From: an uncultured Bdellovibrio sp.
GTDB lineage: Bacteria; Bdellovibrionota; Bdellovibrionia; Bdellovibrionales; Bdellovibrionaceae
Reading direction: 5' to 3'
DNA length: 64,000 nt
NCBI GenBank assembly: GCA_963932905.1
Contig: CAWVRN010000004.1
Span: forward strand, 64,001 to 128,000
Shown here: piece after piece, positions 14,294 through 57,898 of the stretch
How the letters are laid out: each line of letters opens with the position of its first letter
Position numbering within the stretch: the first letter of the stretch is position 1
Program-made: the position numbers and the translations under genes
The notes under the pieces: model-generated
What the model saw: only the letters and a program-made list of their open reading frames with translations
Told to the model about the DNA's origin: nothing
Databases searched by the model: none

Positions 14294-14389
14294 TTCGCTA
14301 TTGTCATTAACTTTCTGATATTTTTCAATCGCATTTTTCGCCTTATTTTTCCTTAGCCAAGCGCCCTGCAAAGTGGCTATACTGCGACC

Positions 14390-16485: not shown

Positions 16486-16641
16486 CTCTACCTCGCTGGA
16501 ACAATTCGTTATCCGGATATTTTCCATACTACCCTGAAATCGACGAATTTCAATTAGAATTCAAGGCATCCGCAACCTAGCCGCTCTCTTGCCTAGCCTC
16601 CTGTCGTTCGATGAAAAACAAAATAACCTATAAGGAGTCCC

Positions 16642-27676: not shown

Positions 27677-27772
27677 CTGGTTGAAATTACAAACCTATCC
27701 TGCGGGTGTCACGTTCTTTCCTTGAAAGGTCAGGCTTTTTTTGATTAAATGAGCCATTCCAAAGAGGTTTAA

Positions 27773-28402
27773 ATGTCGAATACAAATACTGCCGATCCAA
27801 GAGTTAACAACGTATGGTTTAACGCAAGCTCAATGGAAACCTATTTCAGCGATTACAAAAAAAATCTGAATCAAGCTCTGGCGACTGTAAATGCGGCGGA
27901 TTTAGAAAAAGCCTACCAAGTGATGAAAAAAGTAACGGACAACAACGGAACTTTCTTTGTGGCGGGAAACGGCGGGTCCAACGCGATTGCTGATCATTTA
28001 AGCTGCGATTGGACGAAGGGAACGTACGTGGCAGGTAAAAATCCTCTGCGAACCTTATCGTTAATGGCAAACGGTCCCCTATTCACGGCAGCCGCAAACG
28101 ATTTTGGTTATGATCGCGCGATGGCGTACTTACTAGAAATTCAAGCACGTCCAACTGATGCGTTGCTGGTTATTTCTTCATCGGGCAACAGTCCAAATAT
28201 TATCGAAGCCATGAAAACGGCTAAACAAAAAGGTCTTCCCGTGATCGCATTGACAGGCTTTAAAGGTGGCAAAGCGAAAGAGATGGCGGATGTATCTCTG
28301 CATGTGGATTTTTCAAACTACGCGATCGTAGAAGATGGCCACCAAGCGGTCATGCAATGTTTAGCGCAATACTTTTTCGTAAAACACAGTGAAAAATCTT
28401 AA
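27773..28402 (+). CDS. gmhA: SIS-domain phosphoheptose isomerase, copy 2 (divergent)
   Basis: GNGGSNAIADH, TAAANDFGY, ISSSGNSPNI, LTGFKGGK, VEDGH. Confidence 0.8.
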   Translation: MSNTNTADPRVNNVWFNASSMETYFSDYKKNLNQALATVNAADLEKAYQVMKKVTDNNGTFFVAGNGGSNAIADHLSCDWTKGTYVAGKNPLRTLSLMANGPLFTAAANDFGYDRAMAYLLEIQARPTDALLVISSSGNSPNIIEAMKTAKQKGLPVIALTGFKGGKAKEMADVSLHVDFSNYAIVEDGHQAVMQCLAQYFFVKHSEKS

Positions 28403-35901: not shown

Positions 35902-35975
35902 ACCTATTAAATACCTAACCGAAACTACTTTTGCAGAGCAGTTTCGGCATTGGAAAAACATTAAAAGGATTTAAT

Positions 35976-41703: not shown

Positions 41704-43071
41704 ATGAAATCAGACAATAAAAAACACATTATTTTGCGTGAAAATTTCCCATTCTTTACTTTTCTACTCGTTTCTTTTGCGGTTGTTTTTGGACTAGCTT
41801 CGTCAAATTTCTTTGTTTCGGGTGATACTGTAGTTTTAATGAATTCAATCAAGACTATTTCCGACTGCCTTGAGAATGGAAACTTTACCATTTGCCCTTC
41901 CGTCGCCCATTTCCCGTTAAGTCAGCACCTGATTGGATACTTATTTTATAAATCCGGAATACCAATCGAAAATCTTTTAGGCTCCTTTAAAATTTTGAAC
42001 CTATTTGCGTGGTTCTTTGGATTACTGATTCCGGCATTCTTCTGGAGAAATAAAAAACACCTACCAGCTCTTTTGATCTACTTTATTGTGTATATATCAA
42101 GCCCACTTTGGTGGTACGGCAATACTAGCTTTAATGAAATTTTAAGTGCAACATTAATTAGCTTATTTCTCCTAAGCTTAATGTACACCTCTTATCTGCC
42201 TTTTCTAACTAGCTTTTTTGTTGTGCTCACCAAGGAAGTCGCATTTTTATATGTAGTTGCTTGGAGTATAGCCATTGCAGTTATTAAATTCAAAGAAGAT
42301 AAGGGCAACGCCAAAAGAACAGTTTTAAGCGCTTTAGCTGGAACAACTTTAGGTTTAACATTTCAAGTGTTATTTAATTTTTGGCGATTCAATTCCCCTA
42401 TCAACAACGAACTACTTTTGCCGATATACCGAGTACCGACTTTTGAGGTAAAACTTAATTTTTTTCTTGCACAATGGTTTGGTCCAAACGTAGGAATTCT
42501 ATATTTCTGGCCTGCATTGACGGTATTGTTCGTTATGTATTTTCGATTTCATAAAACCTGGAAATGGTATTTTTCTCGCCTAACAGTAGGACTATTTCTA
42601 CTGTCGGTCACAATAGGCTTTGCCTTATGGTGTGCTCCGTTCGGTTGGGTAGCCTACGGCCATCGGTTGATTGTACCTTGGCTACCTGGTTTAACACTAT
42701 TTCTTCTATACTCTGGCAATGACACTATTTCAAAATCGTTAAATGAAATCGCGTCTAGTCCATTTCTTAAGTATTTTGTTTCGTTGGCGGTAACAGCATT
42801 AACAATGCCCAACATTGCTATATTGTTTAACATCAATAATATTTCTAACTTTTTTGTTCCTGACTCTGTTTGCCCAACACCGGCTATCTTGCAGACTGAC
42901 GCCAATTATTATTATAAGTGCATTCAACATTACGCTTGGGATGCAAATTGGATACACTCAGTTACATTTTCTCATACCGATTGGCCAAAAGCGGGACTGG
43001 CTATCGCAATTGGATTGATTAGCCTTGTGGCTTTATTTTACAAATTATTGAAGGCTACCCGTGAAACCTAG
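41704..43071 (+). CDS. Polytopic membrane protein, putative GT-C glycosyltransferase
   Basis: About 10-11 TMs, SGD after TM1, TKE motif, GWVAYGHRLIVP loop; divergent from ugd. Confidence 0.55.
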   Translation: MKSDNKKHIILRENFPFFTFLLVSFAVVFGLASSNFFVSGDTVVLMNSIKTISDCLENGNFTICPSVAHFPLSQHLIGYLFYKSGIPIENLLGSFKILNLFAWFFGLLIPAFFWRNKKHLPALLIYFIVYISSPLWWYGNTSFNEILSATLISLFLLSLMYTSYLPFLTSFFVVLTKEVAFLYVVAWSIAIAVIKFKEDKGNAKRTVLSALAGTTLGLTFQVLFNFWRFNSPINNELLLPIYRVPTFEVKLNFFLAQWFGPNVGILYFWPALTVLFVMYFRFHKTWKWYFSRLTVGLFLLSVTIGFALWCAPFGWVAYGHRLIVPWLPGLTLFLLYSGNDTISKSLNEIASSPFLKYFVSLAVTALTMPNIAILFNINNISNFFVPDSVCPTPAILQTDANYYYKCIQHYAWDANWIHSVTFSHTDWPKAGLAIAIGLISLVALFYKLLKATRET

Positions 43072-44758
43072 ATCATATTTGTTTTATTTTGTAATTTTCG
43101 CATTTACATTTTTCTTATTCTCAATTTTCGCGATTAGAGGGGTAGATCCTCATCATGATGGTTTAATGATTAAAACCTCTATGGATGTACTGTCTGGCCA
43201 AACACTTTATAAGGACACTTTTACCCAATACGGAAGCTTAACGACATATATACAAGTTCTGTTTCTATATCTATTTGGAGCTAAATTAATTTCTCTAAAG
43301 CTAGGAACAGTGGCCGTATACTCAGCCACAGCCGTAATGCAATTTGCAATTGGACGAAAATATTTGCCCTTAGCTTTAAATATATTTTTATATTTTATTT
43401 GGTTGATCATTGCTCCCTTTTACAGAATTGATTGGGCATTTCTATCTTGGTCATCATCCTTTGCTTTATTCTTCCAAACCGCATCGACTCTATGCTTTCT
43501 GACGGCCTTGAGTTCAAAGCAAAGTCGAATATACTGTGTTCTCTCCGGAGTCTTCACTGCCGCCGTATTTTGGTGCCGAATTCCTGCCGGTATTACATTT
43601 GCCGCTGCCTATATAATTATTTTCTTTAGCTGTTTAATCCTAATAAAAAATGAATCTTTTAAAGGCTCAGCGAAAGTTATTCTGATATTAAAAAATTATA
43701 AGCACTTTTTGCTTGGGTATTTCCCGGTAATGATCTTTTTCTTTGGTCTATTATTCTTCACCGAATCACTTGGCGATTGGCATTATCAAGTTTTTGAAGC
43801 TCCAAAAATGTGGCTTAATAATTCGTTTGGGACATCGCCCTCTCGTATTCTATGGAGCTTATTTTACTCTCCGACAAGTGGCATTTTCATTACTATTTCT
43901 CTATTTGCCATTCTCATCTCAGTAAAGTTTGCAGAAAAAAAATTACCTCCCAGCAAATTAAATTTGAACTTGGTTTACCCATTAATACTATCATCTTTCA
44001 TTGTACTTACTTTTTTTATATTTAGTTCAATATCCTTTGATATTTTTGGCGGTTGGGCCTCCGCCATTCCAATCGTTTTGCTAGGATTCTTTTTCGTGAC
44101 ATGCTATGGGCTATTTTATCGAAAGAGCGTAACTTCAGAAAATCAAATAATTTTAATCTGGCTATCAATCATCGCCTTATCTTCATGGCACCAATATTTT
44201 CCCGTGACTTGCTATCGCCACATTTTCTGGGGGGTTTCTCCGGCGCTGGGACCATTTTTGATGATCTGTCTTTATATTGCTAGATTTCGTGTTTTTCCAG
44301 TTATAGTTTCCGTCGGAGTATTTATGCTTCCAATGGTTGCAGATAGAATCTCTGTAGCAAAAACGAATCTAACGTCTTCGTATGTCAAAGTAAATTCCCC
44401 AACCGTGCTATCTGGAATGTTAGTAAATAGAAGTTTATTTGAGACGATATCAACTGTTAATGAAACCATTCAAAATTATCTTTCTAGCCATCCAAATACT
44501 CCCATATTGTTAGACGGTGGAGACGCGCTCTACAATACATTCTCTAGCAACCTTAGCAATCCGGAACCTATGTTTGTATCGTGGGGCTATAGCAATAAAG
44601 AAAGTATCGCAAAAAGAGAAACCTTCATAAAGTTGCAAAAGCCGATTATTATTGTTCAATCAAGACCGGAGGAAAAGCTTCAAGAGTATAAAACTAAATT
44701 TAACTATAAAGTGATTTTGTCGGTCGACTCTATGGTCATTCTCGTTCCGACGAACTAG
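43061..44758 (+). CDS. Polytopic membrane protein, putative GT-C glycosyltransferase
   Basis: DPHHDG after TM1 and GQTLYKDTFTQYGSL loop; about 12-13 TMs plus a soluble C-terminus. Confidence 0.6.
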   Translation: MKPRSYLFYFVIFAFTFFLFSIFAIRGVDPHHDGLMIKTSMDVLSGQTLYKDTFTQYGSLTTYIQVLFLYLFGAKLISLKLGTVAVYSATAVMQFAIGRKYLPLALNIFLYFIWLIIAPFYRIDWAFLSWSSSFALFFQTASTLCFLTALSSKQSRIYCVLSGVFTAAVFWCRIPAGITFAAAYIIIFFSCLILIKNESFKGSAKVILILKNYKHFLLGYFPVMIFFFGLLFFTESLGDWHYQVFEAPKMWLNNSFGTSPSRILWSLFYSPTSGIFITISLFAILISVKFAEKKLPPSKLNLNLVYPLILSSFIVLTFFIFSSISFDIFGGWASAIPIVLLGFFFVTCYGLFYRKSVTSENQIILIWLSIIALSSWHQYFPVTCYRHIFWGVSPALGPFLMICLYIARFRVFPVIVSVGVFMLPMVADRISVAKTNLTSSYVKVNSPTVLSGMLVNRSLFETISTVNETIQNYLSSHPNTPILLDGGDALYNTFSSNLSNPEPMFVSWGYSNKESIAKRETFIKLQKPIIIVQSRPEEKLQEYKTKFNYKVILSVDSMVILVPTN

Positions 44759-44826: not shown

Positions 44827-45858
44827 ATGAACAACACCAATATTAGCCTATTTATCAATAGTCTTCTTCCTAAACTAGAGAACAAAACTATCTTTTTAAC
44901 AGGTGGAACTGGCTTCTTTGGTCGAAGTTTTTTGGAATTTATACTCGGAATCAACTCTGTTCATAATTTGAAATTGAAAATCTATGTATTAGCCCGAGAT
45001 CCAGAGAAGTTTAAAAAACAATACCCAGAGCTAGCTCCCGACTACGTAACTTTCCAAAAGGGAGATATAGTTAACTTTGAATTTTTGGATATAGAAGTTA
45101 ACTATATTTTTCATTTTGCAACTCCAGCTAGTGCAACGATGAATATCGAAAATCCTCTTGGGATGTTTGATAATATTGTTGATGGTTCTAGGCGCATTCT
45201 AGATTTCGCAGTTAAAAGCAAATGTGAAAAATTTTTACTTACTAGTTCTGGTGCGGTATACGGAAAGCAACCGACAGAACTAACCCATATTCCAGAATCC
45301 TATATGGCTGCACCGACCACACAAAATAGCCATTCGGCTTACGGTGAAGGAAAACGGGTTGCTGAGCTTATGGGTAATATCTATTCAGACAAATATGGAT
45401 TTGAGCATAAAATTGCTCGATGCTTTGCTTTCGTAGGTCCTCACATAGACGCCAACGGGACATTTGCAATTGGAAACTTCATTCGCAATGCAGTTCAGGG
45501 AAAGGCTATTTCTATTGGTGGCGACGGAACACCTTTTCGATCTTATTTGTACAGTTCTGATTTGATAGTGTGGCTTTTGACTATTTTATTAAACGGAAAA
45601 AACAAACAACCTTATAATGTTGGCTCGGACGATGACCTTAGCATTTTAGATCTTGCTAAAAAAGTAACTCAACTTGTAAACCCATCTTTACAAATTGAAA
45701 TTGCAAAAAAAGCGCTAGATTTGTCGCGACCAGATCGATATGTCCCCAATGTTTCTTTGGCTAAAAATGAACTAGGTCTTTGTGTCTGGACGTCTTTAGA
45801 AGACTCCATTATCAAAACAGCAGCTGCTTACAAACTGCTGCTGAAGGACAAAAATTAA
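44827..45858 (+). CDS. NAD-dependent epimerase/dehydratase/reductase (extended SDR)
   Basis: TGGTGFFG, TSSGAVYG, YGEGKR, RCFAFVGP, GDGTPFRSYLY. Confidence 0.9.
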   Translation: MNNTNISLFINSLLPKLENKTIFLTGGTGFFGRSFLEFILGINSVHNLKLKIYVLARDPEKFKKQYPELAPDYVTFQKGDIVNFEFLDIEVNYIFHFATPASATMNIENPLGMFDNIVDGSRRILDFAVKSKCEKFLLTSSGAVYGKQPTELTHIPESYMAAPTTQNSHSAYGEGKRVAELMGNIYSDKYGFEHKIARCFAFVGPHIDANGTFAIGNFIRNAVQGKAISIGGDGTPFRSYLYSSDLIVWLLTILLNGKNKQPYNVGSDDDLSILDLAKKVTQLVNPSLQIEIAKKALDLSRPDRYVPNVSLAKNELGLCVWTSLEDSIIKTAAAYKLLLKDKN

Positions 45859-47657
45859 AACTCGTATTTTTTAACCATTTCATCAGACATAAATGGAGCC
45901 ATCTCATGAATCGGTTTCGATTTCATTGATCCATTTTCTAAGCGAACCGATGAAACTGTTGGAATAATGTCTTGATACGGAGGTGTAAAGACTTCGCATA
46001 CAGCAGGACCATTTGAATTCAAAACATTTTTCACTAGCGAGTCTAGCTTAGAAAACTTATCTGTCGAAGAATAAGGAAGCTCATAAGCATTTGCAATCTT
46101 GTCAGTTTTAGGAATAAATACGCCAGATTCGTAACTTGTTCCGACAAAATGGCCACTAAAGAAATTTGTTTGGGAATTACGAATACAAACATACCCATCA
46201 TTATTCACGACAAACAATTTAATATTTAAATTGTATCTCTTAAAAACTGCTAGTTCATGAATATTAGTTTGTAAGGACCCATCACCAGTAACACAAATTA
46301 CACGGCCACCACTAGCAGCTAGTGCGGCACCTGTAGCCGCTGGCAGAGCAAAGCCCATTGCACCCAGTGAACCCGAATTGATTACACGTTGACCTTTTTT
46401 AACTCGAAAAGCCTGACCAACAACATAAAATGCAGAACCGGCATCTGTGACGATAATATCATTTTCTTGGCAATGAGTATCCAAAACTTCCATAAAGTTA
46501 TAGATATTGATTTGATCTCCCTCAACTTTATGAGGCTCTTTATATACTGAAAGCTCGTTTTTAATGCGTTTACAATGCGACAACCAAGCTTCATTTGAAA
46601 CAATTTTCGTTCCGCCAACTTTTTCACTAAGCGCATTCAGAAATGTTTTTACCTCTCCCAAAATTTTATCCTGGAAGCCAACCTCTTCACGTTGTAAAAC
46701 CGCTGGATCTGGGTCGACCATAATCTTATGAGCTTTTGGCGCAAATTGATCGAGTTCATATCCAGTTGTTGTGACATGCAAACTACACCCGACTGAAATG
46801 ATTAAATCAGCAGACTGAATTGCTAAATTACCGGCACGATCACCCTTCATACCAGGGTGGCCAACAAACAAAGGATGGTCATATGGGATTATATCTTTAC
46901 CAAAACACGTCGACACAACCGGAATATTAAGTTTATTAACAAGATCTAAGAAGGTTTTCTCAGCACCTGCAACACGAACTCCATACCCAGCCAATATCAA
47001 AGGCTTCTTCGCTTTACCCAAGGCAGTAACGACCGTATCCATTGTCTGATTATTTATTGCCTTATATTTAGTGTGTTTCGGAGTTTGATCTAATTCAGAT
47101 GGATTAAACCCACGCAGCGAGGCTGGATCCACTGGCGCACCTTGAATATCAATTGGGATATCCAAGAATACACTACCTGGGCGCCCGTCCATCGCCATGA
47201 AAATCGCTTTTTCTAAGTGATAGCGAATATCTTGAGCCTTACTAACAAAGCCCGCATACTTTGTAACTGATTTTACATTTTGAATGATATCAACTTCAAA
47301 GGTTCCAAACTGTCGCAAGCCTTCTATTTTCGATCCTTCAATAGTCTGAGAAACTTTACTTTGACCAGAAATAAAAAGAACTGGAGAGGAATCTTGAAAT
47401 GCACCAACGACAGCAGTCAAAGTATTAGTGCCGCCCGGCCCGCTTGTCGCGTAACAAACCCCTAAACTGCCTGTGATTCGTGCATGAGCATCTGCCGCGA
47501 TCCCGCTAGCTTGTTCGTGGTGATTACATATGTAGGTTAAATTTTTGCGTCTACTTACAGCATCCAGCAAGTGCATCATTCCACCGCCCGAAAGTAAGAA
47601 AACGTGTTTAACACCAATATTTTCTAAATGTTCAGCTACATAGTCTGCGACTCTCAC
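45855..47657 (-). CDS. ThDP-dependent carboligase of the acetolactate-synthase superfamily (YerE-like)
   Basis: HHEQ, TSGPGGTN, GRPGSV.LDIP.DIQ, GAMGFALPA, GDGSLQTNIHEL...NNDGY; sits inside a CDP-sugar operon with no ilvN/ilvH small subunit. Confidence 0.88.
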   Translation of the reverse strand: MRVADYVAEHLENIGVKHVFLLSGGGMMHLLDAVSRRKNLTYICNHHEQASGIAADAHARITGSLGVCYATSGPGGTNTLTAVVGAFQDSSPVLFISGQSKVSQTIEGSKIEGLRQFGTFEVDIIQNVKSVTKYAGFVSKAQDIRYHLEKAIFMAMDGRPGSVFLDIPIDIQGAPVDPASLRGFNPSELDQTPKHTKYKAINNQTMDTVVTALGKAKKPLILAGYGVRVAGAEKTFLDLVNKLNIPVVSTCFGKDIIPYDHPLFVGHPGMKGDRAGNLAIQSADLIISVGCSLHVTTTGYELDQFAPKAHKIMVDPDPAVLQREEVGFQDKILGEVKTFLNALSEKVGGTKIVSNEAWLSHCKRIKNELSVYKEPHKVEGDQINIYNFMEVLDTHCQENDIIVTDAGSAFYVVGQAFRVKKGQRVINSGSLGAMGFALPAATGAALAASGGRVICVTGDGSLQTNIHELAVFKRYNLNIKLFVVNNDGYVCIRNSQTNFFSGHFVGTSYESGVFIPKTDKIANAYELPYSSTDKFSKLDSLVKNVLNSNGPAVCEVFTPPYQDIIPTVSSVRLENGSMKSKPIHEMAPFMSDEMVKKYEF

Positions 47658-48430
47658 AACGTACCACCTAACGCTCGTGTATATTGCTCTTTTATATTTA
47701 AAAAACTTTTTCCAATTAAGAAACTATCCACACCCACAACAATAAAGTTCGCACCTAACTTATGGTACTTTGAGACTTCACTAGGGTCTTGAACCATGAC
47801 ACCGGCAATACTGTTTGCATTTCTAATTTTAACTATCGAAGATTCAACAATACTCATCAATTTTGGATTTTTCATATCACCAGGTGCACCCAGTGCCACT
47901 GACAAATCATAAGATCCGATATAAACAATATCCAAATCTGGAACCTGAAGGATTTTATCTAGTTCATCAACTGCCTGCAAGGTTTCTACAATCACACCAG
48001 TTAAAGCAAATCCATTCGAGTTTCTATTTTCACTAGGGCGAACTAAAGAGTAATCGCTAACTCGTGTAAACGGATTAAAACCTCTTACACCTCTAGGAGC
48101 ATAATGAGTCAACTTAACTGCATTTTCTACTTCACTAAGACTTTTCACTTGCGGAAAAATAATTCCATGGGCACCAAGATCCATCGCCTTTTGAGTGGCA
48201 ATCGCATCAAGGCCATTGATTCTGACTAAAGGAGAACATTCATGAAGTTCACAACTGCGAATACTGGCATCAAGGCTTTCAAAACTAAATAGTCCATGCT
48301 CCATATCCAAAATTTGAAAGTCCATCTTTGCAATAGATAAAACTTCAGCATTGATGGCCGATGGAATAATCGACCAAGTACCACATACCCAACCTTGGGA
48401 CGCAATTTTTTGTTTAATAAAGTTTCTAAT
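47654..48430 (-). CDS. HpcH/HpaI class II pyruvate aldolase; probable ATT start
   Basis: DMEHG, LVR, D.GA.GII.PQV, Y.P.G.RG, IVET, YIGSYDLS. The frame extends 35 codons beyond the track's ATG (48325) and adds the conserved GTWSIIPS strand. Confidence 0.88.
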   Translation of the reverse strand: MRNFIKQKIASQGWVCGTWSIIPSAINAEVLSIAKMDFQILDMEHGLFSFESLDASIRSCELHECSPLVRINGLDAIATQKAMDLGAHGIIFPQVKSLSEVENAVKLTHYAPRGVRGFNPFTRVSDYSLVRPSENRNSNGFALTGVIVETLQAVDELDKILQVPDLDIVYIGSYDLSVALGAPGDMKNPKLMSIVESSIVKIRNANSIAGVMVQDPSEVSKYHKLGANFIVVGVDSFLIGKSFLNIKEQYTRALGGTL

Positions 48431-48462
48431 TGGATCGTCCTATTTTTAAATCTTATTTAAAT

Positions 48463-49524
48463 TTAGTTTCTATCTAATAAATACCATTGAACCGTTCGCT
48501 CAATAGCTTTGTCCAACGGGACTGTCATTTTTAGATTAAACTTATCTTGTATTTTACTTGTATCAGGCACCATACGAGTTTTTCGCATCGCCGAAGCCGT
48601 ACCAGCACAATAAATGATGTCAGTTTTAACGCTAAAATGTTTCACTACTTTTAAAGACAAATCCCTTAGGTTAACTGGTTCAGAGCTACCTAAATTATAT
48701 TTTGCTCCCGATTCAGCATTTAACAACGTCTTCAATGTCCAAAATGCCATATCTGTAGCGTACATAAAACTACGTACCGTTTCGCCATCACCTAAAACTT
48801 TTACAGATTTTCCGTTAATAGCATCATTAATAAAGCTGTTTAAGGCCCAAGGACTATTTAGAGACTGGTATGGACCAACTAAGGTAAACGGACGTAGAGT
48901 ACAAACAGGAACTCGGAATTGACTACGATAAGCCGAACACAATCCTTCCGTATAACGTTTAGCTTCAGCATAAACGCTCGAAGTAGAAGTTTCATCTACG
49001 TAGGTAAAATCACCTTCTGTCACATTCTTTTCACGATCGAAAAAGTGTCCATAGACCGAAGAAGAACTCATATTCAAAAACATTTTAAAATTAGACAGAC
49101 GATCTGTCGCTCGAAGGACAGAGTCAATTCCAAGACCTGACGAATTCATCACTTCTACTGGAGACGAGGTATGATCATGACTACTTGGGAAACCCGCCGC
49201 AAACACTACGTAATTAGTATCTTTAGGTAGTTCAACTAAGTACCGAATATCCGAACGCTGAAAATCAAACAACTTTGAGTTTAATAGATGCGGAGAGCGC
49301 GTTTTAACCTTTTCGATATCACGATCTATAATAGTAACTTTGGTGTTGAACTTATGTTCCGTGTTCAAAAAGTTAACAATTTCAGAAATCCACGTACCTA
49401 CGAATCCCGCACCACCTGGAATACATAGAGAACTATTTTTAAGACCGTCAAGTTCACTTACACTGACCGACTCAAAAAGGTCTTTAATGTCTTTTTGTAT
49501 AAAGTTAAACTGCTTGATACTCAT
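48463..49524 (-). CDS. NAD-dependent epimerase/dehydratase/reductase (extended SDR)
   Basis: PGGAGFVG, SSSSVYG, YAEAKR, RPFTLVGP, GDGETVRSFMY. Confidence 0.88.
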   Translation of the reverse strand: MSIKQFNFIQKDIKDLFESVSVSELDGLKNSSLCIPGGAGFVGTWISEIVNFLNTEHKFNTKVTIIDRDIEKVKTRSPHLLNSKLFDFQRSDIRYLVELPKDTNYVVFAAGFPSSHDHTSSPVEVMNSSGLGIDSVLRATDRLSNFKMFLNMSSSSVYGHFFDREKNVTEGDFTYVDETSTSSVYAEAKRYTEGLCSAYRSQFRVPVCTLRPFTLVGPYQSLNSPWALNSFINDAINGKSVKVLGDGETVRSFMYATDMAFWTLKTLLNAESGAKYNLGSSEPVNLRDLSLKVVKHFSVKTDIIYCAGTASAMRKTRMVPDTSKIQDKFNLKMTVPLDKAIERTVQWYLLDRN

Positions 49525-50537
49525 AGCATTGGTCCATTTTTTTGAGCCAAGTCTTTTGCTACTTCCATAATATAATCTTCCTGACCAGCGATCACCTTGC
49601 GACGACCAAGTTCAAAGAAAATATCACGAGGATCTAATTTATATTCAGCCGCAATACGAGTCACAGGCTTCATGAAACCAGAAAACACACCAGATAGACC
49701 GCTTACAATGCTCACTGAACTAATTGTTGGAGGCGCAGGCATTAATTCTTTTTCAGCTAAATCAGCGGCATCCAAAACTTTATAGAAATCAATTCCAGTT
49801 TGATACTTCATTCGGTGCAGAACTGCGACCAAAACTTCAAGTTGAGCATTTCCGGCTCCCGCGCCAAAACCGCGCGCGCAACCGTCCAGAATTTCAGCTC
49901 CACTCTCTACAGCCGTTATTGAGTTCGCAATGGCCATACCCAAATTGTTATGAGCATGAAATCCTACCGGAATATTTAAACCACCGACCAAAGTTTCAAC
50001 TCTTTCTTTAACATCTGAAGGCAAGTAATATCCAGCGGAGTCCATAAATACGATTGCTTGCGCTCCGTAAGACTCCATTTTCTTAGCTTCTTCAAGCAAG
50101 ATTTCCTTGGTCACCAAATGCGACATCATCAAAATACCGTAAACTGTTTTATCTTGTTTACGAGCGTAATCGATATGTCGTTCAGTTAAATCAGCTTCTG
50201 TACAATGAGATGCAACGCGAATAACATCAACACCGTACTCGATCGCAGGTTTTAAATCTTTTTCAATTGTTGCAAATCCAGGGATCACATGAACACCTAG
50301 CTTTGATTTTTTTAAATTTTCACGCGCTGTCCGTAAAGCTACTTCATCAGAACAAGTCGCTTCACCAAGTTGTAAAGAAGAGGCTCCGACACCGTTACCA
50401 TGACCCACTTCAATTATTGGAATTCCTGCAGCGTCTGCAGCACGACAATATTTCGCGATTTGTTCAGCAGTCAGTTTATGTCGAATCGCATGATTTCCGT
50501 CTCTTAACGTAGGATCGCTAACTAAAATTTGCTTCAT
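49521..50537 (-). CDS. dmpG: 4-hydroxy-2-oxovalerate aldolase
   Basis: DPTLRDGNHA, IEVGHGNG, RVASHCTEAD, DSAG, GFHAHNNLG, GFGAGAGNAQLE. Confidence 0.95.
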   Translation of the reverse strand: MKQILVSDPTLRDGNHAIRHKLTAEQIAKYCRAADAAGIPIIEVGHGNGVGASSLQLGEATCSDEVALRTARENLKKSKLGVHVIPGFATIEKDLKPAIEYGVDVIRVASHCTEADLTERHIDYARKQDKTVYGILMMSHLVTKEILLEEAKKMESYGAQAIVFMDSAGYYLPSDVKERVETLVGGLNIPVGFHAHNNLGMAIANSITAVESGAEILDGCARGFGAGAGNAQLEVLVAVLHRMKYQTGIDFYKVLDAADLAEKELMPAPPTISSVSIVSGLSGVFSGFMKPVTRIAAEYKLDPRDIFFELGRRKVIAGQEDYIMEVAKDLAQKNGPML

Positions 50538-51418
50538 ACAAATAACTCCTTGTTTTGCATTTTGCTGGCATACTCTTCTGCCATTGCAACAGCCGCACAG
50601 TTAATAATATCTAAATTACCCGCGTACTCCGGCAGATAATCTCCTAAGCCTTTTACTCGAATGGTAGTGAAAATACGTCCATCCTCTAAAATCGGACCAA
50701 CGATAACTTCATAACCAGGAACATACTTTTTAATGGCTTGCTCCAACTCTTTAACTGCTTTTTGAAGAGCTGGCATATCTGGATTATCGACTTTCGCCAT
50801 AACCGTAGTTTGCATATTAATGCATGGAACTGCTGGGTTAAGATTTAAAATGGCTTTTGTACGTTTAGCGCCAGAAAACTTCTTAACTCCGCCTTCAGTT
50901 GTGTGAATGTACTCATCTAAATTGATACGAGTAGCACGGCCCGCGCTACGAGAAGCAATTGAAGATACAACTTCAATATAATCCACAGACTTTTGTGTTT
51001 TTCCGATAGCATAAGCTATTGGAATAGACGCTTGCCCACCGCATGTGACCATATTTACATTTTGCAAATTTGCGCATTCTTTCAAATTAACTGCTGGAAC
51101 ACACATCTCACCAACTTTAGCCGGAGTTAAGTCGATTACTTTTTTTCCTAGGCGTTCCAAAATCGGTGCATGCTCAAGATGACTAGCCGCTGACGTCGCA
51201 TCGAAAACGATATCACAACACCCAGGATTATTCACAATGTACGCGATACCTTCTGCTGAAACAGGAACATTCAAAGATTGAGCTTTTAGAATTCCTTGGG
51301 ATCCAAGATTTCTTCCAATAAAAGCGCCTGCCTCCAACTGTCTTGAACGCAGTACTTTAACCAGCAAATCAGCCCCGATATTACCCGTTCCTAAAATTGC
51401 TACTTTAATTTTTTTCAC
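50534..51418 (-). CDS. dmpF: Acetaldehyde dehydrogenase (acylating)
   Basis: GTGNIGADL, FDATSA, IDLTPA, NVNMVTCGGQA (catalytic Cys), SAG.ATR.N.DE, GDYLPEYAGNLDI. Confidence 0.95.
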   Translation of the reverse strand: MKKIKVAILGTGNIGADLLVKVLRSRQLEAGAFIGRNLGSQGILKAQSLNVPVSAEGIAYIVNNPGCCDIVFDATSAASHLEHAPILERLGKKVIDLTPAKVGEMCVPAVNLKECANLQNVNMVTCGGQASIPIAYAIGKTQKSVDYIEVVSSIASRSAGRATRINLDEYIHTTEGGVKKFSGAKRTKAILNLNPAVPCINMQTTVMAKVDNPDMPALQKAVKELEQAIKKYVPGYEVIVGPILEDGRIFTTIRVKGLGDYLPEYAGNLDIINCAAVAMAEEYASKMQNKELFV

Positions 51419-51426
51419 ACTGCCCC

Positions 51427-52773
51427 CTATTTAACTTGCTCTTTAATAGCTGTTTCCAATTGTTCTAACATGTAATCCAATTTCTTTTGATCCAATGCGG
51501 GATGAACACCAATCCAAAAAACTCTGTTCATAATTGTATCTGTATTTTTCAAATCCCCGTGAACACGATAATTTACATTTTTATACGCTGGTTGCTTAGT
51601 TAAGTTACCTGCGAACAAAAGGCGTGTCCCTACTTTTTTATTTTCTAAACTAGCTACGATTTTTTCACGATTCAATGATTCGTGACAAATCATCGGAAAT
51701 CCAAACCAACTTGGCTCAGTTCCTGGCGTTGGTTCAATCGGAGACAGAAGTTCGCTCAATAAAGGTGAACTTTTAATACCTTTATACAAGTAACTCCAAT
51801 TCGCGCGACGTTTTTCAATAAACCCATCTAATTTCTTAAGCTGAGCCACACCTAACGCCGCCTGCATATCAGTAACTTTTAAATTGTAACCCACCTGCGA
51901 ATAAATATATTTATGATCGTAGCCATCGGGAAGGCTGCCCAACTGCCAATTAAAGCGTTTCTTACAGGTGTTGTCTTTTCCAGGTTCACACCAGCAATCA
52001 CGACCCCAGTCACGAATACTTTCTGCAATTTTTTTAAAGCGGCCATCACGTGAAAGAACAGCTCCTCCTTCACCCATAGTAATATGATGAGCCGGATAGA
52101 AACTTGTTGTTGCATAATCAGAAAATGAGCCTACGGCGCGGCCTTGAACTTTGGCACCCAAGGCATCACAGCAATCCTCTACAAGGTAAAGATTTTCCTT
52201 CTGACACCATTCTTGAAGAATATCTGAACGATATGGATTACCCAAAGTATGAGCCAAAACAACGGCTTTAGTTTTAGAAGTTTTAGCCGCCATGATTTTT
52301 TCCGGCAATGCATTGATAGTTTGAAGATCAACATCAACAAATACAGGTGTCCAACCATTTTGCACAATTGGATTTACAGTTGTAGGGAAACCGGCTGCGA
52401 CGGTGATTACCTCATCGCCAGGTTGAATAGGTTCTTTTCCAAAATCACGAAGTAAGTGTGATCCTAAAGAACTTACTGCCACTAAATTTGCACTAGAACC
52501 GCTATTCACTAAAAGTGCTTTTGTTTGACGATCAAAGTATTTGGGAAATGCGGCTTCGAAGTCGCGGCCAAAGCGACCAGCTGTTAACCACATATCTAGA
52601 GACGCTTCTAATAACAATCCAAGATCATCGGAATCCACAACTTTAGCTGTTACCGGGATATAGGATTCGCCTGGAACAAATGCTGGCTGTTGCGCCATTT
52701 TGCCATCGTAATATTTTTTAGCCAAGTTGATGATGGCGTCCCTTTGTTCTTGATCAGCACTTTTAGATATCAT
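51427..52773 (-). CDS. rfbH: CDP-4-keto-6-deoxy-D-glucose 3-dehydrase (E1, DdhC/AscC)
   Basis: WLTAGRF, VNSGSSANL, AHTLGNP, EDCCDALG, SFYPAHHITMGEGG (His in place of the PLP Lys), RDWGRDCWC...NTC Fe-S motif, YDHKY. Confidence 0.95.
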   Translation of the reverse strand: MISKSADQEQRDAIINLAKKYYDGKMAQQPAFVPGESYIPVTAKVVDSDDLGLLLEASLDMWLTAGRFGRDFEAAFPKYFDRQTKALLVNSGSSANLVAVSSLGSHLLRDFGKEPIQPGDEVITVAAGFPTTVNPIVQNGWTPVFVDVDLQTINALPEKIMAAKTSKTKAVVLAHTLGNPYRSDILQEWCQKENLYLVEDCCDALGAKVQGRAVGSFSDYATTSFYPAHHITMGEGGAVLSRDGRFKKIAESIRDWGRDCWCEPGKDNTCKKRFNWQLGSLPDGYDHKYIYSQVGYNLKVTDMQAALGVAQLKKLDGFIEKRRANWSYLYKGIKSSPLLSELLSPIEPTPGTEPSWFGFPMICHESLNREKIVASLENKKVGTRLLFAGNLTKQPAYKNVNYRVHGDLKNTDTIMNRVFWIGVHPALDQKKLDYMLEQLETAIKEQVK

Positions 52774-52785
52774 TTCTTCCTCTTA

Positions 52786-53715
52786 TTAAAAATTAATTCG
52801 TTCTTTTTCAATAACCATTGGTCGCTTTTGGACCTGAGTTAAAATTGTCCCAACATATTCACCAATTATTCCAATGAAAAACAACTGTATGGAAGTCATA
52901 AAGAAAAACCCAATCAACAAAGGTGCCATACCCATGCCGAATTGATCCCAAAAAATTAACTTCAAAACTAAATATATCACTGACGTAATTAACGATATCA
53001 GCCCAAGTGCGAAACCTGCTAATGTAGCCAATCGCAACGGAACTCTAGAATAGCTGACAATTCCCAACATACCAATATCATATAACGTATAAAAATTGTT
53101 TTTTGAAAAACCGCGTTTTCGAACCGGTTGTTTAAAATATATTATCTTTTTCTCGAAGCCTAAATCAGCAATAAGACCCCGAAAATAAGGGTATGGATCA
53201 TCAATAAGCCTAAGGATATCGATAACTTTTCGATCATACAAACCGGTACCTGTGTAGTTTTTAACTAACTTAACGTCAGAAATTTTCCCTAACGAATTAT
53301 AAAACAGCTTACGAATGGCATAAAACAAAGGCGACTCTTCACTTTGATTTTTAACACCAATTACAACTTTATAGCCCTGTTCCCAGCCAGCAATAAAATC
53401 TTTGATTAATTCAGGAGGATCTTGAAGATCAGAGGCCAAAAGCATAGTTGCATCGGCATTCGATTGCATTAATCCATAGACTGGAGAGCGAATATGCCCA
53501 AAGTTTCTTGTGTTACAAATTAGCTTAACATTTTTATCTTGATTACAAAGTTTTTTAACTGAATCAACCGTGCTATCAGTAGACGCATTGTCGATAAAAA
53601 TATGCTCGTAATTATAACCAGGCAACTCAGCAAAAACTTGCTTGATCCGATCATACAATTCTTGAACGTTAGCTTCCTCATTATAACAAGGCGTGACTAC
53701 AGATATGGATCGCAA
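52786..53715 (-). CDS. GtrB-like polyprenyl-phosphate glycosyltransferase (GT2 with two C-terminal TMs)
   Basis: PCYNEE.N, FIDNASTD, RNFG, DLQDPPE, YFRGL, two TMs then GIIGEYVG..L..V.KRP; TTG start with AGGAG SD. Confidence 0.88.
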   Translation of the reverse strand: MRSISVVTPCYNEEANVQELYDRIKQVFAELPGYNYEHIFIDNASTDSTVDSVKKLCNQDKNVKLICNTRNFGHIRSPVYGLMQSNADATMLLASDLQDPPELIKDFIAGWEQGYKVVIGVKNQSEESPLFYAIRKLFYNSLGKISDVKLVKNYTGTGLYDRKVIDILRLIDDPYPYFRGLIADLGFEKKIIYFKQPVRKRGFSKNNFYTLYDIGMLGIVSYSRVPLRLATLAGFALGLISLITSVIYLVLKLIFWDQFGMGMAPLLIGFFFMTSIQLFFIGIIGEYVGTILTQVQKRPMVIEKERINF

Positions 53716-53779
53716 CGAATTCTCCTATGACTGATATCACTTTTTCGAAGAATTTTAGCGAAAAGGCAAGTTAATACTT

Positions 53780-54844
53780 CTAGTTAATCCCAAAGTAATT
53801 GGCAATTTGAAGAGAGGTTAAAGACTTAACATTCTGCTTGTCATAAAACTGCTTATACCAATCTACGGTATTCTTCAAAGTGGTAGAAATATCCCACTTC
53901 GGCGCCCATTTCAGCTGATTACGAACTTTAGAAATATCTAGTTTCAGCAGCTTAGCCTCATGCACGTTTGCTACAGAAGTATTTGTCCAAAAATGTGGCT
54001 TTCCCCAAAGATTACAAACAGTATCGGCAATGACCTCAACTGTAACACAACCAGAGTCTTCAGGACCGAAATTATACCCTTGGGAAAATTTTTGAGGTTG
54101 CTCATAAAGCTTTTCAGCAAGCAAAAGATATCCACCAATTGGCTCTAAAACATGCTGCCATGGTCTAACAGATTGAGGGCTGCGAATTTCAACTTTACGC
54201 CCTTCATCTAGAGCCTGAATTAAATCAGGAACTAATCTATCTAAAGCCCAATCGCCACCACCAATGACATTTCCCGCACGTGCTGAAGCCAAGCCCACAT
54301 CTGGACGCTTTTGAAAGAAAGACTGTCGATATGCAGCTGTGACCAGCTCTGCACAGCCTTTACTACTAGAATATGGATCGTATCCGCCCATTGGGTCATT
54401 TTCTCTATAACCCCAATCCCATTCTTTGTTTTCATAACATTTATCTGTCGTTACAACGACGATACTTTTTACCGCCGGAACCGACCTTAGAGCTTCCAGT
54501 ACATTGGCAGTTCCCATAACGTTCGTTTCATATGTTTCCAAAGGGAAATCATACGAATAACGAACTAAAGGTTGCGCGGCCAAATGCAAAACAATTTCAG
54601 GATTAAATGCTACAATACTTTTTTTTAGTTCACTAAAGTTTCGAATATCTAAAATCTGATGGTCTATTGAACCAGAAATACCTAGTTCTGAAAATAAATT
54701 TATCTTGGTAGGAGGCTCAAGCGAAATCCCCTTCACATTGCTACCCCAAGAAGCTAAAATAGATGATAGCCAAGCACCCTTAAAACCCGTGTGACCAGTA
54801 ACTAAAACTCTCTTGCTTTTCCAAAACTGGTAATTGGTTACCAT
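53780..54844 (-). CDS. rfbG: CDP-glucose 4,6-dehydratase
   Basis: TGHTGFKG.WL, HLAAQPLVR.SY, TTDKCYEN, DPYSSSK, ARAGNVIGGGDW, RPWQHVLEP. Confidence 0.97.
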   Translation of the reverse strand: MVTNYQFWKSKRVLVTGHTGFKGAWLSSILASWGSNVKGISLEPPTKINLFSELGISGSIDHQILDIRNFSELKKSIVAFNPEIVLHLAAQPLVRYSYDFPLETYETNVMGTANVLEALRSVPAVKSIVVVTTDKCYENKEWDWGYRENDPMGGYDPYSSSKGCAELVTAAYRQSFFQKRPDVGLASARAGNVIGGGDWALDRLVPDLIQALDEGRKVEIRSPQSVRPWQHVLEPIGGYLLLAEKLYEQPQKFSQGYNFGPEDSGCVTVEVIADTVCNLWGKPHFWTNTSVANVHEAKLLKLDISKVRNQLKWAPKWDISTTLKNTVDWYKQFYDKQNVKSLTSLQIANYFGIN

Positions 54845-55608
54845 GTTTTCCACGGCGCCTTTCCAGAAGCCCATAAAGACTCCAGGTAATTCTTATCTCT
54901 AAGCGTATCCATTGGCTGCCAAAAGCCTTCATGCTGAAAAGCACATAGTTGCCCAGCCTTGGTAATTGTCTCTAATGGACCTTTTTCCCAAACGGTCGAA
55001 TCGTCCGGAATAAAATTAAGTACATCAGAATTTAAAACAAAAAATCCCCCGTTAATGTAGCCACCTTCTCCCAATGGCTTTTCCTCAAAATTCGTCACTG
55101 TTTTATTTTCGATATGCAATTGGCCAAATCGTCCAGGCGGCCTAGTTGCAGTTACAGTCGCCATTTTTCCATGGTTTTGATGGAATTTTAACAACTCGGA
55201 AATGTTAATATCAGAAACGCCATCTCCGTACGTTAAACAAAAACTTTCTTGAGGTTTTAAATATTTTTGAATGCGCTTAACACGACCACCGGTCATGGTG
55301 TTTTCACCGGTGTCTACGACAGTCACACTCCATGGTTCTGAACCATTCTCATGGACTTCCACTTTATTATTTTTTAAATTAATTGTAATATCGCTGTTGT
55401 GGAGAAAGTAATTCACAAAGTATTCTTTTATTACGTAGCCTTTATAACCACAGCAAATGATAAATTCATTGATACCATAGCTAGAATATATTTTCATTAT
55501 ATGCCAAAGAATTGGGCGCCCACCAATTTCGATCATCGGCTTAGGGCGGAGATGACTCTCTTCACTAATTCTGGTTCCTAAACCACCTGCCAAAATGACT
55601 GCCTTCAT
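54838..55608 (-). CDS. rfbF: Glucose-1-phosphate cytidylyltransferase
   Basis: MKAVILAGGLGTRISEE...PKPMIEIG, TMTGGR, LTYGDG, INGGFF, FWQPMDTLRDK, APWK.W; GAGGGAG SD. Confidence 0.97.
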   Translation of the reverse strand: MKAVILAGGLGTRISEESHLRPKPMIEIGGRPILWHIMKIYSSYGINEFIICCGYKGYVIKEYFVNYFLHNSDITINLKNNKVEVHENGSEPWSVTVVDTGENTMTGGRVKRIQKYLKPQESFCLTYGDGVSDINISELLKFHQNHGKMATVTATRPPGRFGQLHIENKTVTNFEEKPLGEGGYINGGFFVLNSDVLNFIPDDSTVWEKGPLETITKAGQLCAFQHEGFWQPMDTLRDKNYLESLWASGKAPWKTW

Positions 55609-55771: not shown

Positions 55772-57898
55772 ATGACGTTCATTAATAGCCTTAGGAAACA
55801 CTCTACTGACATCGCTTTACTGATCGCCATTTTTGTTTTCTTTCCATTTGTTTATAGTCTAACATTCAAACAAACAGGTAATATTTGGAGATACCCCCTC
55901 GGCTACGGCGAAGATGGGGCTTTAACCCTAGCAATCATTAAGGGAATTATTCAAAATGGGTGGTATCTCGAGAATCCGTACCTGGGCGCCCCATTCAATC
56001 AATTAAATTTCGATTTTCCGATTCCCGATCTACTATTCCTATTCATTATCAAAATCCTAGGACTTTTTCGCGCCGATCATTTTCAAATATTTAACATGTT
56101 TTTCTACCTTTCCTACTCGATGGTGGGATGCAGTGCTTTCGCTGTACTCCGAAGGTTAAATATTTCTCCCGCAGTTAGCCTCCTTGGCGCTTTCGTTTTT
56201 GCTTTTTTGCCGTATCATCAACTTCGACTTAATCATCTTTTTTTAATCAATTATTTTGCAGTTCCCGTATTCGCTTACTACGCATACAAATGCTTTTTAG
56301 AAGATAAAAAAATCTCTGGAAAAGAACTATTGATATCGGGGGCCCTTATCACTCTCGCTTCGGCAGGCGGCGTTTATTACGCCTTTTTCGGAGGATTCTT
56401 TATTGGTGTATCTGCCACTCTCGCTTGGCTAAAAAATTCGAATATTTTAGCAGTCAAACGAGCTATCAGCTATATTGGAGTTATATCAGTTACAGTTTTG
56501 CTTTGCATATCACCAAATATTGTTTGGCAGATGGAAAATGGAAAAAATCCAACGGTCGGACAACGTATTTTTATGGAATCAGAAGTTTTTGGTTTAAAGA
56601 TTGCGCAGCTAGTTCTACCAATGCAGGGACACCGACTCGGAGCATTTGCAAAAATAAATCGCAGCTACTCAAGCATGGCTCCCAATGTTAACGAAAATGC
56701 TGGATCAAGCCTCGGCATGTTTGGAGTCATTGGTTTTCTGGGTTTACTTTTGATGATTCTGGATATCAGGCCGATTGACCCTAAAACTTATATTACTTCA
56801 AGATTGAATTTTCTTGGCGTTCTTTTTGCGACGGTGGGAGGAGCCGGAGTTTTATTTTCTATGTTCGTTACTCCACAGTTCCGGGGAATGAACCGAATTA
56901 GTACATTTATTGCTTTTTACTCTATCGTTTACTTTTGCGTTCTCGTTGATAAGATAATTAATAAAATTAATTTGAAACTATTTTCGTTGATTAGCCTCAG
57001 GTACATAGCCGTCCCCCTATTGTTTATATTTTCCTACTGGGACCAAGTAAGTCCACAACACGCACCCGGAATTGTTCATGCCTATTCAATGTTTGACAGC
57101 AACGACTCTTTTTTCAAAAACTTAGAAAAAACAGTCCCTTCTCAAGCAATGATTTATCAATTGCCATATGTGCGCTACCCAGAAAGCCAGATACTTTTCA
57201 AAGAAGGGTATTATGCTCTAGTGCGACCGTACCTACATACAGAAAAAATCAAATGGAGTTATGGTCAAATGGGATATAGAGATGGTGACGCATGGATGTC
57301 TGCTCTATCAGCATATCCAATCGAAAAACAAATAGCAGTTTTAACGGACTTTCCTTTTTCGGGTGTCTTAATTGACAGACTGGGACTACGAGACAATGGG
57401 GCAGACCTTGAGGGGAAGCTAAACAAGTTAATTCCCGATGCCCCTCTAATTAGTCCAGACAAACGATACTCTTATTATTCTTTTGAAAACTACAAAGGAT
57501 TATCGGGAACAGAAACCCTTTTGCCTATTTTTAATAATAACTGGTATCCCCCCGAAACTGACGGCCCCGCAAAATGGATGTGGTCGAGATCAAACGATTC
57601 GTCATTTATTTTAAAACCGTTTTCAAACAAAACAACTCGGTGCATAGTTAAGTTTAATCTGCAAGCAAGTAAACCATCGATAGTTACAATGACAACGACT
57701 GATGCATCTGTAGCTACCAAATCCTACGATTTCAATAAAGAGAACAACTTTGACGTCACCCTGGATATCTTGGTTAAAAAAGAGGGAACGCGACTAAGTT
57801 TCAAAACCGAAACAGAACCAATTCAGCTCGATGCTTCAGATGCGAGATACTTTTCCTTCAGACTAAGAGACCTAACTGTTTGCGGAGAGAAGTTTTAG
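55772..57898 (+). CDS. Polytopic membrane protein, putative GT-C (YfhO-like) glycosyltransferase with C-terminal periplasmic domain
   Basis: GED after TM1, GWYLENPYLGAP, FLPYH..RL.H, FR..NRIS, YQLPY..YPE; divergent from rfbF. Confidence 0.6.
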   Translation: MTFINSLRKHSTDIALLIAIFVFFPFVYSLTFKQTGNIWRYPLGYGEDGALTLAIIKGIIQNGWYLENPYLGAPFNQLNFDFPIPDLLFLFIIKILGLFRADHFQIFNMFFYLSYSMVGCSAFAVLRRLNISPAVSLLGAFVFAFLPYHQLRLNHLFLINYFAVPVFAYYAYKCFLEDKKISGKELLISGALITLASAGGVYYAFFGGFFIGVSATLAWLKNSNILAVKRAISYIGVISVTVLLCISPNIVWQMENGKNPTVGQRIFMESEVFGLKIAQLVLPMQGHRLGAFAKINRSYSSMAPNVNENAGSSLGMFGVIGFLGLLLMILDIRPIDPKTYITSRLNFLGVLFATVGGAGVLFSMFVTPQFRGMNRISTFIAFYSIVYFCVLVDKIINKINLKLFSLISLRYIAVPLLFIFSYWDQVSPQHAPGIVHAYSMFDSNDSFFKNLEKTVPSQAMIYQLPYVRYPESQILFKEGYYALVRPYLHTEKIKWSYGQMGYRDGDAWMSALSAYPIEKQIAVLTDFPFSGVLIDRLGLRDNGADLEGKLNKLIPDAPLISPDKRYSYYSFENYKGLSGTETLLPIFNNNWYPPETDGPAKWMWSRSNDSSFILKPFSNKTTRCIVKFNLQASKPSIVTMTTTDASVATKSYDFNKENNFDVTLDILVKKEGTRLSFKTETEPIQLDASDARYFSFRLRDLTVCGEKF

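Follow-up and report, generated by a model that had tools for sequence, protein, structure and literature searches.

An operon in the 64,000-nucleotide stretch of DNA analysed here (C4:64001-128000 of a 4.55 Mb genome that is 98.6% complete; hereafter, the window) probably makes a cytidine diphosphate (CDP)-activated 3,6-dideoxyhexose with a 1,3-dihydroxybutyl branch at C-4, that is, erwiniose or its C1′ epimer. It would follow the scheme proposed by Steitz et al. in 2022, in which ErwJ provides acetaldehyde, ErwI provides 4-hydroxy-2-oxopentanoate, ErwE adds this to CDP-4-keto-3,6-dideoxyglucose and ErwF reduces the product to erwiniose (PMC9306805). Genes were called with curated NCBIfam cut-offs, Pfam, PDB searches and tblastn against the whole genome, and all chemistry given for the window locus is predicted from such comparisons. 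The ten genes, with percent identities to their counterparts in the erwiniose cluster of Pectobacterium (L272), are the following:

54838 to 55608, minus strand: rfbF/ddhA, glucose-1-phosphate cytidylyltransferase (TIGR02623, 464 bits, cut-off 300; 64% to L272)
53780 to 54844, minus strand: rfbG/ddhB, CDP-glucose 4,6-dehydratase (TIGR02622, 484 bits, cut-off 278; 51% to L272)
52786 to 53715, minus strand: GtrB-like family 2 glycosyltransferase (GT2) carrying a pair of C-terminal membrane helices at 232 and 266 (PF00535; sll0501 E 3e-48, ArnC-type)
51427 to 52773, minus strand: rfbH/ddhC (E1), CDP-4-keto-6-deoxyglucose 3-dehydrase (NF011936, 635 bits; 3bcx E 1e-145; 52% to L272)
50534 to 51418, minus strand: ErwJ/DmpF-type acylating acetaldehyde dehydrogenase (TIGR03215, 377 bits; 57% to L272)
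49521 to 50537, minus strand: ErwI/DmpG-type pyruvate aldolase, predicted (4R)-selective (TIGR03217, 396 bits; 64% to L272; His83/Phe285)
48463 to 49524, minus strand: SDR1, an extended short-chain dehydrogenase/reductase (SDR) (PF01370; 33% to the L272 SDR after erwI)
47654 to 48430, minus strand: HpcH/HpaI-family class II pyruvate aldolase (PF03328; 4b5s E 2.5e-31; 44% to L272)
45855 to 47657, minus strand: ErwE-type thiamine diphosphate (ThDP) carboligase (ErwE-like protein of L272: 52% over 597 aa)
44827 to 45858, plus strand: SDR2, probable C1′ ketoreductase (PF01370; distribution versus ErwF; Ser/Tyr in 30/30)

The ten-gene set was found where an earlier reading made from the letters alone (the sequence-only reading) had placed it, with RfbF, RfbG, RfbH, DmpF and DmpG above curated NCBIfam cut-offs. 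Successive gaps in the minus-strand run are −7, 64, 12, 8, −4, −4, 32 and −4 nt, and the convergent SDR2 gene has a 4-nt overlap with the stop of the ThDP gene. The claimed layout, a co-directional run with gaps of 64 nt or less, several overlaps and a convergent second SDR, was thus borne out, given an ATT start for hpcH. The 32-nt gap holds only with this non-standard start at 48430, which has AGGA upstream and an open frame, while the first ATG (48325) would leave a gap of 137 nt. Relatives of HpcH carry the same extra ~35 N-terminal residues with an ATG, GTG or TTG start near this position, and ATT at 48428-48430 (minus strand) is the probable start codon. One short contig agrees with the window across this ATT, which lies close to the contig end, but this is too weak to count. 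An equivalent gene set was seen across many phyla in the locus comparison, as the same reading had thought possible for other loci, and the grouping is therefore not due to chance.

The ThDP gene was compared with those from a motif scan of GTDB genomes, which gave at least 119 stretches, 80 of them with flanks. Non-duplicate loci held 131 full-length ThDP genes, comprising 42 of ErwE type by motif, 33 of JanthE type (ThDP-binding motif CDG) and 56 others; the JanthE-type loci were all reached via dmpG, hence the dmpG count among them reflects selection. The window protein has the motif GDG, not CDG, and falls in the ErwE clade with a FastTree support of 0.97, at 52% identity over 597 aa to the L272 protein, which is identical by eye to the ErwE printed in the supplement of PMC9306805. 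ErwE couples 4-hydroxy-2-oxopentanoate to a model ketone in vitro, rejects pyruvate and selects the (R) enantiomer (PMC9306805). By homology to that reaction, the window enzyme would decarboxylate its donor and transfer a 3-hydroxybutanoyl unit onto C-4. Two different ThDP carboligases were seen within one sugar cluster at L070, L223 and L038.

An opposing explanation is that this enzyme transfers nothing more than a pyruvate-derived C2 unit, as in yersiniose-type sugars, or is an acetolactate synthase, with dmpFG being catabolic. The best NCBIfam models for the protein and the database names do read acetolactate synthase, but it passes no curated cut-off (349 bits, with 538 needed), it lies in the ErwE clade, and ErwE itself rejects pyruvate (PMC9306805). 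It is also the only acetohydroxyacid synthase-like gene found by tblastn in the genome, where no ilvC match above cut-off was detected, which makes a role in acetolactate synthesis unlikely. That role, which the sequence-only reading had named as one that would count against it, was rejected on the gene evidence (no ilvC; 349/538 bits for the acetohydroxyacid synthase models; ErwE clade). The catabolic half of the explanation fares no better. No catechol 2,3-dioxygenase (TIGR03211) was found above cut-off in the genome, and PF01557 genes are absent from the contig of the operon, the two in the genome being on other contigs, in agreement with the earlier claim that other meta-cleavage genes are lacking. 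The dmpFG genes overlap their sugar-gene neighbours and carry biosynthetic-clade residues, no second copy of dmpF or dmpG was found by tblastn in the 98.6% complete genome, and the Leu87/Tyr290 (4S) active site of catabolic DmpG does not occur in the window enzyme. Leftover aromatic catabolism was rejected for these reasons (dioxygenase, residues, overlap), and the explanation as a whole is hardly credible.

The aldolase residues in question were located by aligning the window protein to DmpG 1NVM, which puts His83 at Leu88 and Phe285 at Tyr291. These two 1NVM positions we take to be 87 and 290 of BphI, with an offset of one, so that the BphI numbering used here is placed via the 1NVM alignment and not via a BphI sequence. 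After removal of 6 duplicates, 150 DmpG homologues were kept. Those beside sugar genes (n = 105, most of them found by their likeness to the window DmpG) had His/Phe in 99 cases and Phe/Phe in 6, whereas the 32 beside dmpE/dmpH-like genes had Leu/Tyr in 31, the other being a Phe/Phe protein from a Streptomyces FabH/acyl carrier protein (ACP) cluster. The 13 with neither context were mixed (7 Leu/Tyr, 3 His/Phe, 3 other). His/Phe was also found in 26 of the 27 located through a ThDP neighbour, with one Phe/Phe, and Leu/Tyr in 4/4 PDB aldolases. When the two signature columns were removed before tree building, all His/Phe, Phe/Phe and His/Cys proteins formed one clade of 112 (support 0.86), which also takes in other apparently biosynthetic clusters. 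Among these are same-clade DmpFG with Phe/Phe or His/Cys in Streptomyces FabH/ACP and Phaeobacter ATP-grasp/aminotransferase clusters (L138:8060-11361, L139:5234-9223, L140:7734-12260), apparently other biosynthetic uses of the pair.

BphI is restricted to the (4S) acid as substrate and as product; Y290F abolishes this stereocontrol, L87N/Y290F and L87W/Y290F are (4R)-selective, and long aldehydes are admitted only by the smaller L89A (PMC3962088). Because His83/Phe285 mimic these engineered pairs, the window DmpG is predicted to be (4R)-selective; its position 89 is Ile. The catalytic motifs are invariant and the metal and catalytic residues are kept. DmpF would convert acetyl-CoA to acetaldehyde and DmpG would join this to pyruvate, giving (R)-4-hydroxy-2-oxovalerate, and we infer by analogy that ErwI-type aldolases in general make the (R) acid that ErwE prefers. 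No statement of a stereochemical signature for ErwI-type aldolases was found in the literature searched, a search whose coverage takes in few chemistry journals; anie.202404045, anie.202403535, the Steitz 2019 dissertation and the supplement of PMC9306805 may cover this locus type, HpcH or the signature.

The last step would be reduction of the C1′ ketone by SDR2, as its gene distribution suggests. Counted at ≥38% identity, SDR2 occurs in 17 of the 42 ErwE-type loci and ErwF in 18, with both together in none. Each also accompanies ThDP genes without dmpFG, and the catalytic Tyr is invariant in both families, in 30/30 rows for SDR2 (Ser/Tyr likewise 30/30) and 38/38 for ErwF with the query counted twice. 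SDR2 is therefore a probable C1′ ketoreductase standing in for ErwF/YerF, and, not being orthologous to ErwF, may give either the C1′ configuration of erwiniose or that of its epimer. The earlier proposal that DmpFG runs in the synthetic direction, followed by ThDP-dependent transfer and SDR reduction, is supported by the 52% ErwE-clade enzyme and is the same as the published erwiniose scheme (PMC9306805).

The acceptor is also accounted for, since RfbF, RfbG and RfbH, required in an erw-type pathway for CDP-4-keto-3,6-dideoxyglucose, are all present, as their family assignments show, and would make it. RfbH matches the Yersinia E1 structure 3bcx (E 1e-145) and retains its YPAHHITM and CxC..C..HKY stretches. 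No match to RfbI/E3 was obtained in the genome by tblastn with RfbI of L079, from Pectobacterium versatile, and a profile search found no PF00175 (FNR-type NAD-binding) domain in the whole genome. As no E3 was found, E1 would have to take its electrons from a general carrier; RfbI/E3 is present in just 3 of the 42 ErwE-type loci. SDR1 was considered as a substitute for E3 and rejected, as L079, L271 and L272 hold both SDR1 and RfbI.

Two conserved genes stand outside this scheme. For HpcH, an alignment to HpaI 4b5s (E 2.5e-31) shows the D-x-EH, R, E and D positions to be conserved, and in almost every locus its gene immediately precedes the ErwE-type one. Of the 42 ErwE-type loci, 35 have it; dmpG accompanies it in 33 of these, and the other 2 are on short contigs. 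Among the 33 JanthE-type loci it was seen in one, where an ErwE-type gene is present as well, at a cut of 35% that leaves out a 32% HpcH in L251. HpcH therefore travels with ErwE and not with DmpFG. The remaining 7 ErwE-type loci lack both HpcH and DmpG, and 3 of them have a PanB-like gene beside the ThDP gene. These PanB-like ketopantoate hydroxymethyltransferase genes (L042:9002-9889, L073:10117-10980, L075:9017-9925) stand in CDP-dideoxysugar loci without dmpFG, and their products could make 4-hydroxy-2-oxobutanoate, an accepted ErwE donor, leading to a C3-branched sugar without precedent in the literature examined. SDR1 directly follows dmpG in 86 of the 91 loci with room to see. Its family keeps the catalytic Tyr in 73/85 members (Phe or His in 12/85) and the Lys in 74/85 (changed in 11/85), and because neither is strictly kept, an accessory or non-canonical role is more likely; it may be a tailoring protein. 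No specific function for SDR1 or SDR2 emerged from PDB searches, in which proteins of the UDP-glucuronate decarboxylase type ranked best.

This distribution raises the question of whether HpcH, not DmpG, supplies the ThDP donor, using acetaldehyde from a leaky DmpFG, with the product still of erwiniose type. The Y290F exchange in BphI reportedly lowers aldehyde channelling. The position of hpcH directly before the ErwE-type gene argues for this, as does the PanB-like gene in 3 of the 7 loci without HpcH and DmpG, which makes the slot look like that of a donor-maker, and the caryophyllose cluster is reported with an aldolase/citrate-lyase-family enzyme (PMC9306805). The JanthE-type loci, on the other hand, have DmpFG and SDR1 with HpcH in only 1/33, so that DmpG appears to be the donor source there; DmpG catalytic motifs are invariant; and the product of E. 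coli HpaI is racemic (PMC9306805). We consider it unlikely that HpcH is the donor source, and HpcH may instead support donor supply or editing by re-forming or clearing the gamma-hydroxy keto acid. The aldolases could also act in series, with 4-hydroxy-2-oxovalerate yielding 3-hydroxybutanal, to which HpcH adds a second pyruvate for a six-carbon branch and a C12 sugar tailored by SDR1. Both aldolases look intact, ErwE accepts a longer donor (PMC9306805), and some loci have two ThDP enzymes (L070, L223, L038, as above). Against this, HpcH and SDR1 are likewise part of the Pectobacterium erw locus, and ten-carbon erwiniose is the sugar reported for P. atrosepticum (PMC8657720, PMC9912281). Because L272 has HpcH and an SDR after dmpG, the two-aldolase set is the erwiniose set and no sign of a longer sugar. 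The serial route is thus quite improbable, and the "longer relative" of erwiniose that the sequence-only reading had allowed for is disfavoured. HpcH with DmpG as a novel combination was rejected likewise, both being present in L272.

Returning to the erwiniose-type product, its delivery would start with the GtrB-like GT2, which has sll0501 (E 3e-48) and ArnC-type polyprenyl-phosphate transferases as its best PDB matches and likely loads the sugar onto undecaprenyl phosphate. GtrB-like genes (≥50%) occur in 16 of the 42 ErwE-type loci. Three further genes adjoin the operon:

55772 to 57898, plus strand: membrane glycosyltransferase of GT-C fold, running divergently from rfbF, a candidate for the final transfer (AlphaFold2, Foldseek)
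43061 to 44758, plus strand: polytopic membrane protein encoded in the SDR2 run, perhaps a second GT-C (~10 hydrophobic helices; no Pfam match)
41704 to 43071, plus strand: polytopic membrane protein, first gene of the SDR2 run (~8 hydrophobic helices; no Pfam/NCBIfam family)

The 708-aa product of 55772-57898 has no Pfam match, but its AlphaFold2 model (predicted local distance difference test 94.6) gave STT3, AglB, AftD, PglB and ArnT as top Foldseek matches (E 2e-7 to 1e-4), and homologues occur in 5 other branched-sugar loci. Homologues of 43061-44758 were seen in L073, L128 and, partly, L254. Pfam and NCBIfam gave nothing for five membrane proteins. A GT-C enzyme, most likely 55772-57898, would attach the sugar to a surface glycan outside the cytoplasm, its link to the branched sugar being a prediction. 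These features suggest that the sugar is delivered via a lipid carrier, unlike in Pectobacterium with its Wzx/GT route. The genome has two GT2 genes of polyprenyl-phosphate type, although no GtrA-family protein was found in it. A lipid-linked donor is said to have been proposed for caryophyllose. The accessible part of PMC4403928 only raises that idea, for a related enzyme. More polytopic membrane proteins are encoded in the glycan region (window 31244-33298 and 35931-37676; L278:1849-3984 and 13847-15286). With 41704-43071 and 43061-44758 they make six besides the GT-C protein, with possibly several GT-C enzymes among them; the four inside the window match nothing in Pfam nor, for those searched, in NCBIfam.

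Several points weigh against the proposed pathway. ErwE was tested on a model ketone and aldehydes only, and its conversion was 76% with the C6 homologue versus 49% with the C5 donor, while ErwI, ErwJ and ErwF lay outside the assays of the paper (PMC9306805). An identity of 52% is insufficient to fix the donor specificity of the window enzyme. His at 87 is not among the engineered BphI variants, and since the His/Phe signature arose once, in one clade, the residue counts are not independent. The lack of an E3 match counts against the pathway, as does that of a tblastn match to an ErwF orthologue in the genome, and HpcH and SDR1 are conserved yet needed by no proposed step. For delivery, no GtrA-family flippase (PF04138) was found in the genome, and with a second GT2 and several other membrane proteins in the region, the pairing with the GT-C protein is a guess. 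The operon is nevertheless real and intact and would work like the erw pathway, but as a variant for which no ErwF or RfbI was found. Possible, though doubtful, is the stronger claim of an undescribed branched sugar (a C1′ epimer through SDR2, or C12 through HpcH) made with a natural (4R)-DmpG and delivered by an undecaprenyl-phosphate/GT-C route to the surface of a predatory bacterium.

The bacterium carrying the operon is probably predatory. The operon lies in a large surface-glycan region with heptose, GDP-mannose and UDP-xylose-type genes and with genes for Wzm/Wzt, for proteins resembling Wzx and an O-antigen ligase, and for a number of membrane proteins. The GC content of the genes is 35-42%, against 40.7% for the genome, and composition gives no clear sign of recent import. 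The ErwE-type ThDP gene is patchy within the phylum, being found in 6 of 401 genomes searched, its own included, and in 0/3 other genomes of the same genus searched; the nearest named relatives of the protein are from Bdellovibrionales (64-66% identity), which makes membership of this order probable for the host. Elsewhere in the window, 25351-28402 and 15877-16527 hold GHMP kinase, fused nucleotidyltransferase-phosphatase and SIS isomerase genes of a GDP-heptose-type pathway, and a HipA-like kinase gene, recognised by eye, lies at the edge of the glycan region (23640-24914, minus strand). Just outside, L278:3988-7433 encodes two nucleotidyltransferase-like proteins, a HAD phosphatase, a phosphodiesterase-like protein and a GT2, as judged by eye from the translations.

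The mechanism itself is not novel, as it is already in print (PMC9306805). What is added here is the His/Phe signature of DmpG, the mutual exclusivity of SDR2 and ErwF, the GtrB-like GT2 with a GT-C neighbour, and a genome in which no RfbI/E3 was found. His or Phe at 87 with Phe at 290 separates biosynthetic from aromatic-degrading DmpG, and this two-residue marker would correct calls of "aromatic degradation" in genome annotation. The signature would also close a stereochemical gap, in that a (4S)-specific family has been proposed to feed an (R)-preferring carboligase, and if the prediction is true, natural (4R)-selective pyruvate aldolases would be useful in biocatalysis. HpcH and SDR1 are brought out as two conserved erwiniose-cluster genes without a role in the published scheme; the text of PMC9306805 has no discussion of HpcH or of the SDR after erwI.

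Among known systems, the erwiniose cluster is one that the sequence-only reading had proposed for comparison, and L272 has counterparts of eight of the window's genes (33-64% identity), has hpcH directly before the ThDP gene and carries the same His/Phe in ErwI. It differs in having ErwF in place of SDR2, in having RfbI/E3, in gene order (rfbI-rfbF-rfbG-rfbH-hpcH-erwE-erwF-erwJ-erwI-SDR-wzx-GT), and in having Wzx and soluble GTs where the window has a GtrB-like GT2 and a GT-C neighbour. The 28 Pectobacterium genomes searched held 3 genes close to ErwE and one more distantly related ThDP gene. The catabolic pairs DmpG/DmpF, BphI/BphJ, MhpE/MhpF and HsaF/HsaG share folds and families with the window proteins at ~36-46% identity, but have Leu87/Tyr290, are (4S) and stand beside hydratase or decarboxylase genes, whereas the window enzyme belongs to a separate His/Phe clade. 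GtrABC and ArnC-ArnT combine a GtrB-like GT2 and a GT-C fold as in the window, where the GtrA-family flippase is the part not found in the genome. Yersiniose A (YerE/YerF) and caryophyllose (MMAR_2331-2333), likened here by description and not by sequence, likewise involve ThDP-dependent branching of CDP-4-keto-3,6-dideoxyglucose followed by reduction, with a C2 or C6 branch and no DmpFG described; the ThDP gene of M. marinum has an aldolase gene and a GT2 gene as neighbours (PMC9306805). A survey of >200 YerE-like clusters (anie.202403535) is cited in a 2025 review (PMC12247030). Finally, the JanthE-type loci (PDB 8RPH) resemble the window in DmpF, His/Phe DmpG, SDR1 and one reductase, but their ThDP enzyme is only ~33% identical, has CDG and not GDG, accepts pyruvate and lacks an HpcH partner. 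L274:6913-11818 and 32 similar loci encode such CDG enzymes with DmpF, His/Phe DmpG and SDR1, and JanthE accepts 4-hydroxy-2-oxovalerate (PMC12188165). This suggests 4-hydroxy-2-oxovalerate as the physiological donor of JanthE-type enzymes, a candidate for JanthE itself, whose physiological substrates are reported as unknown.

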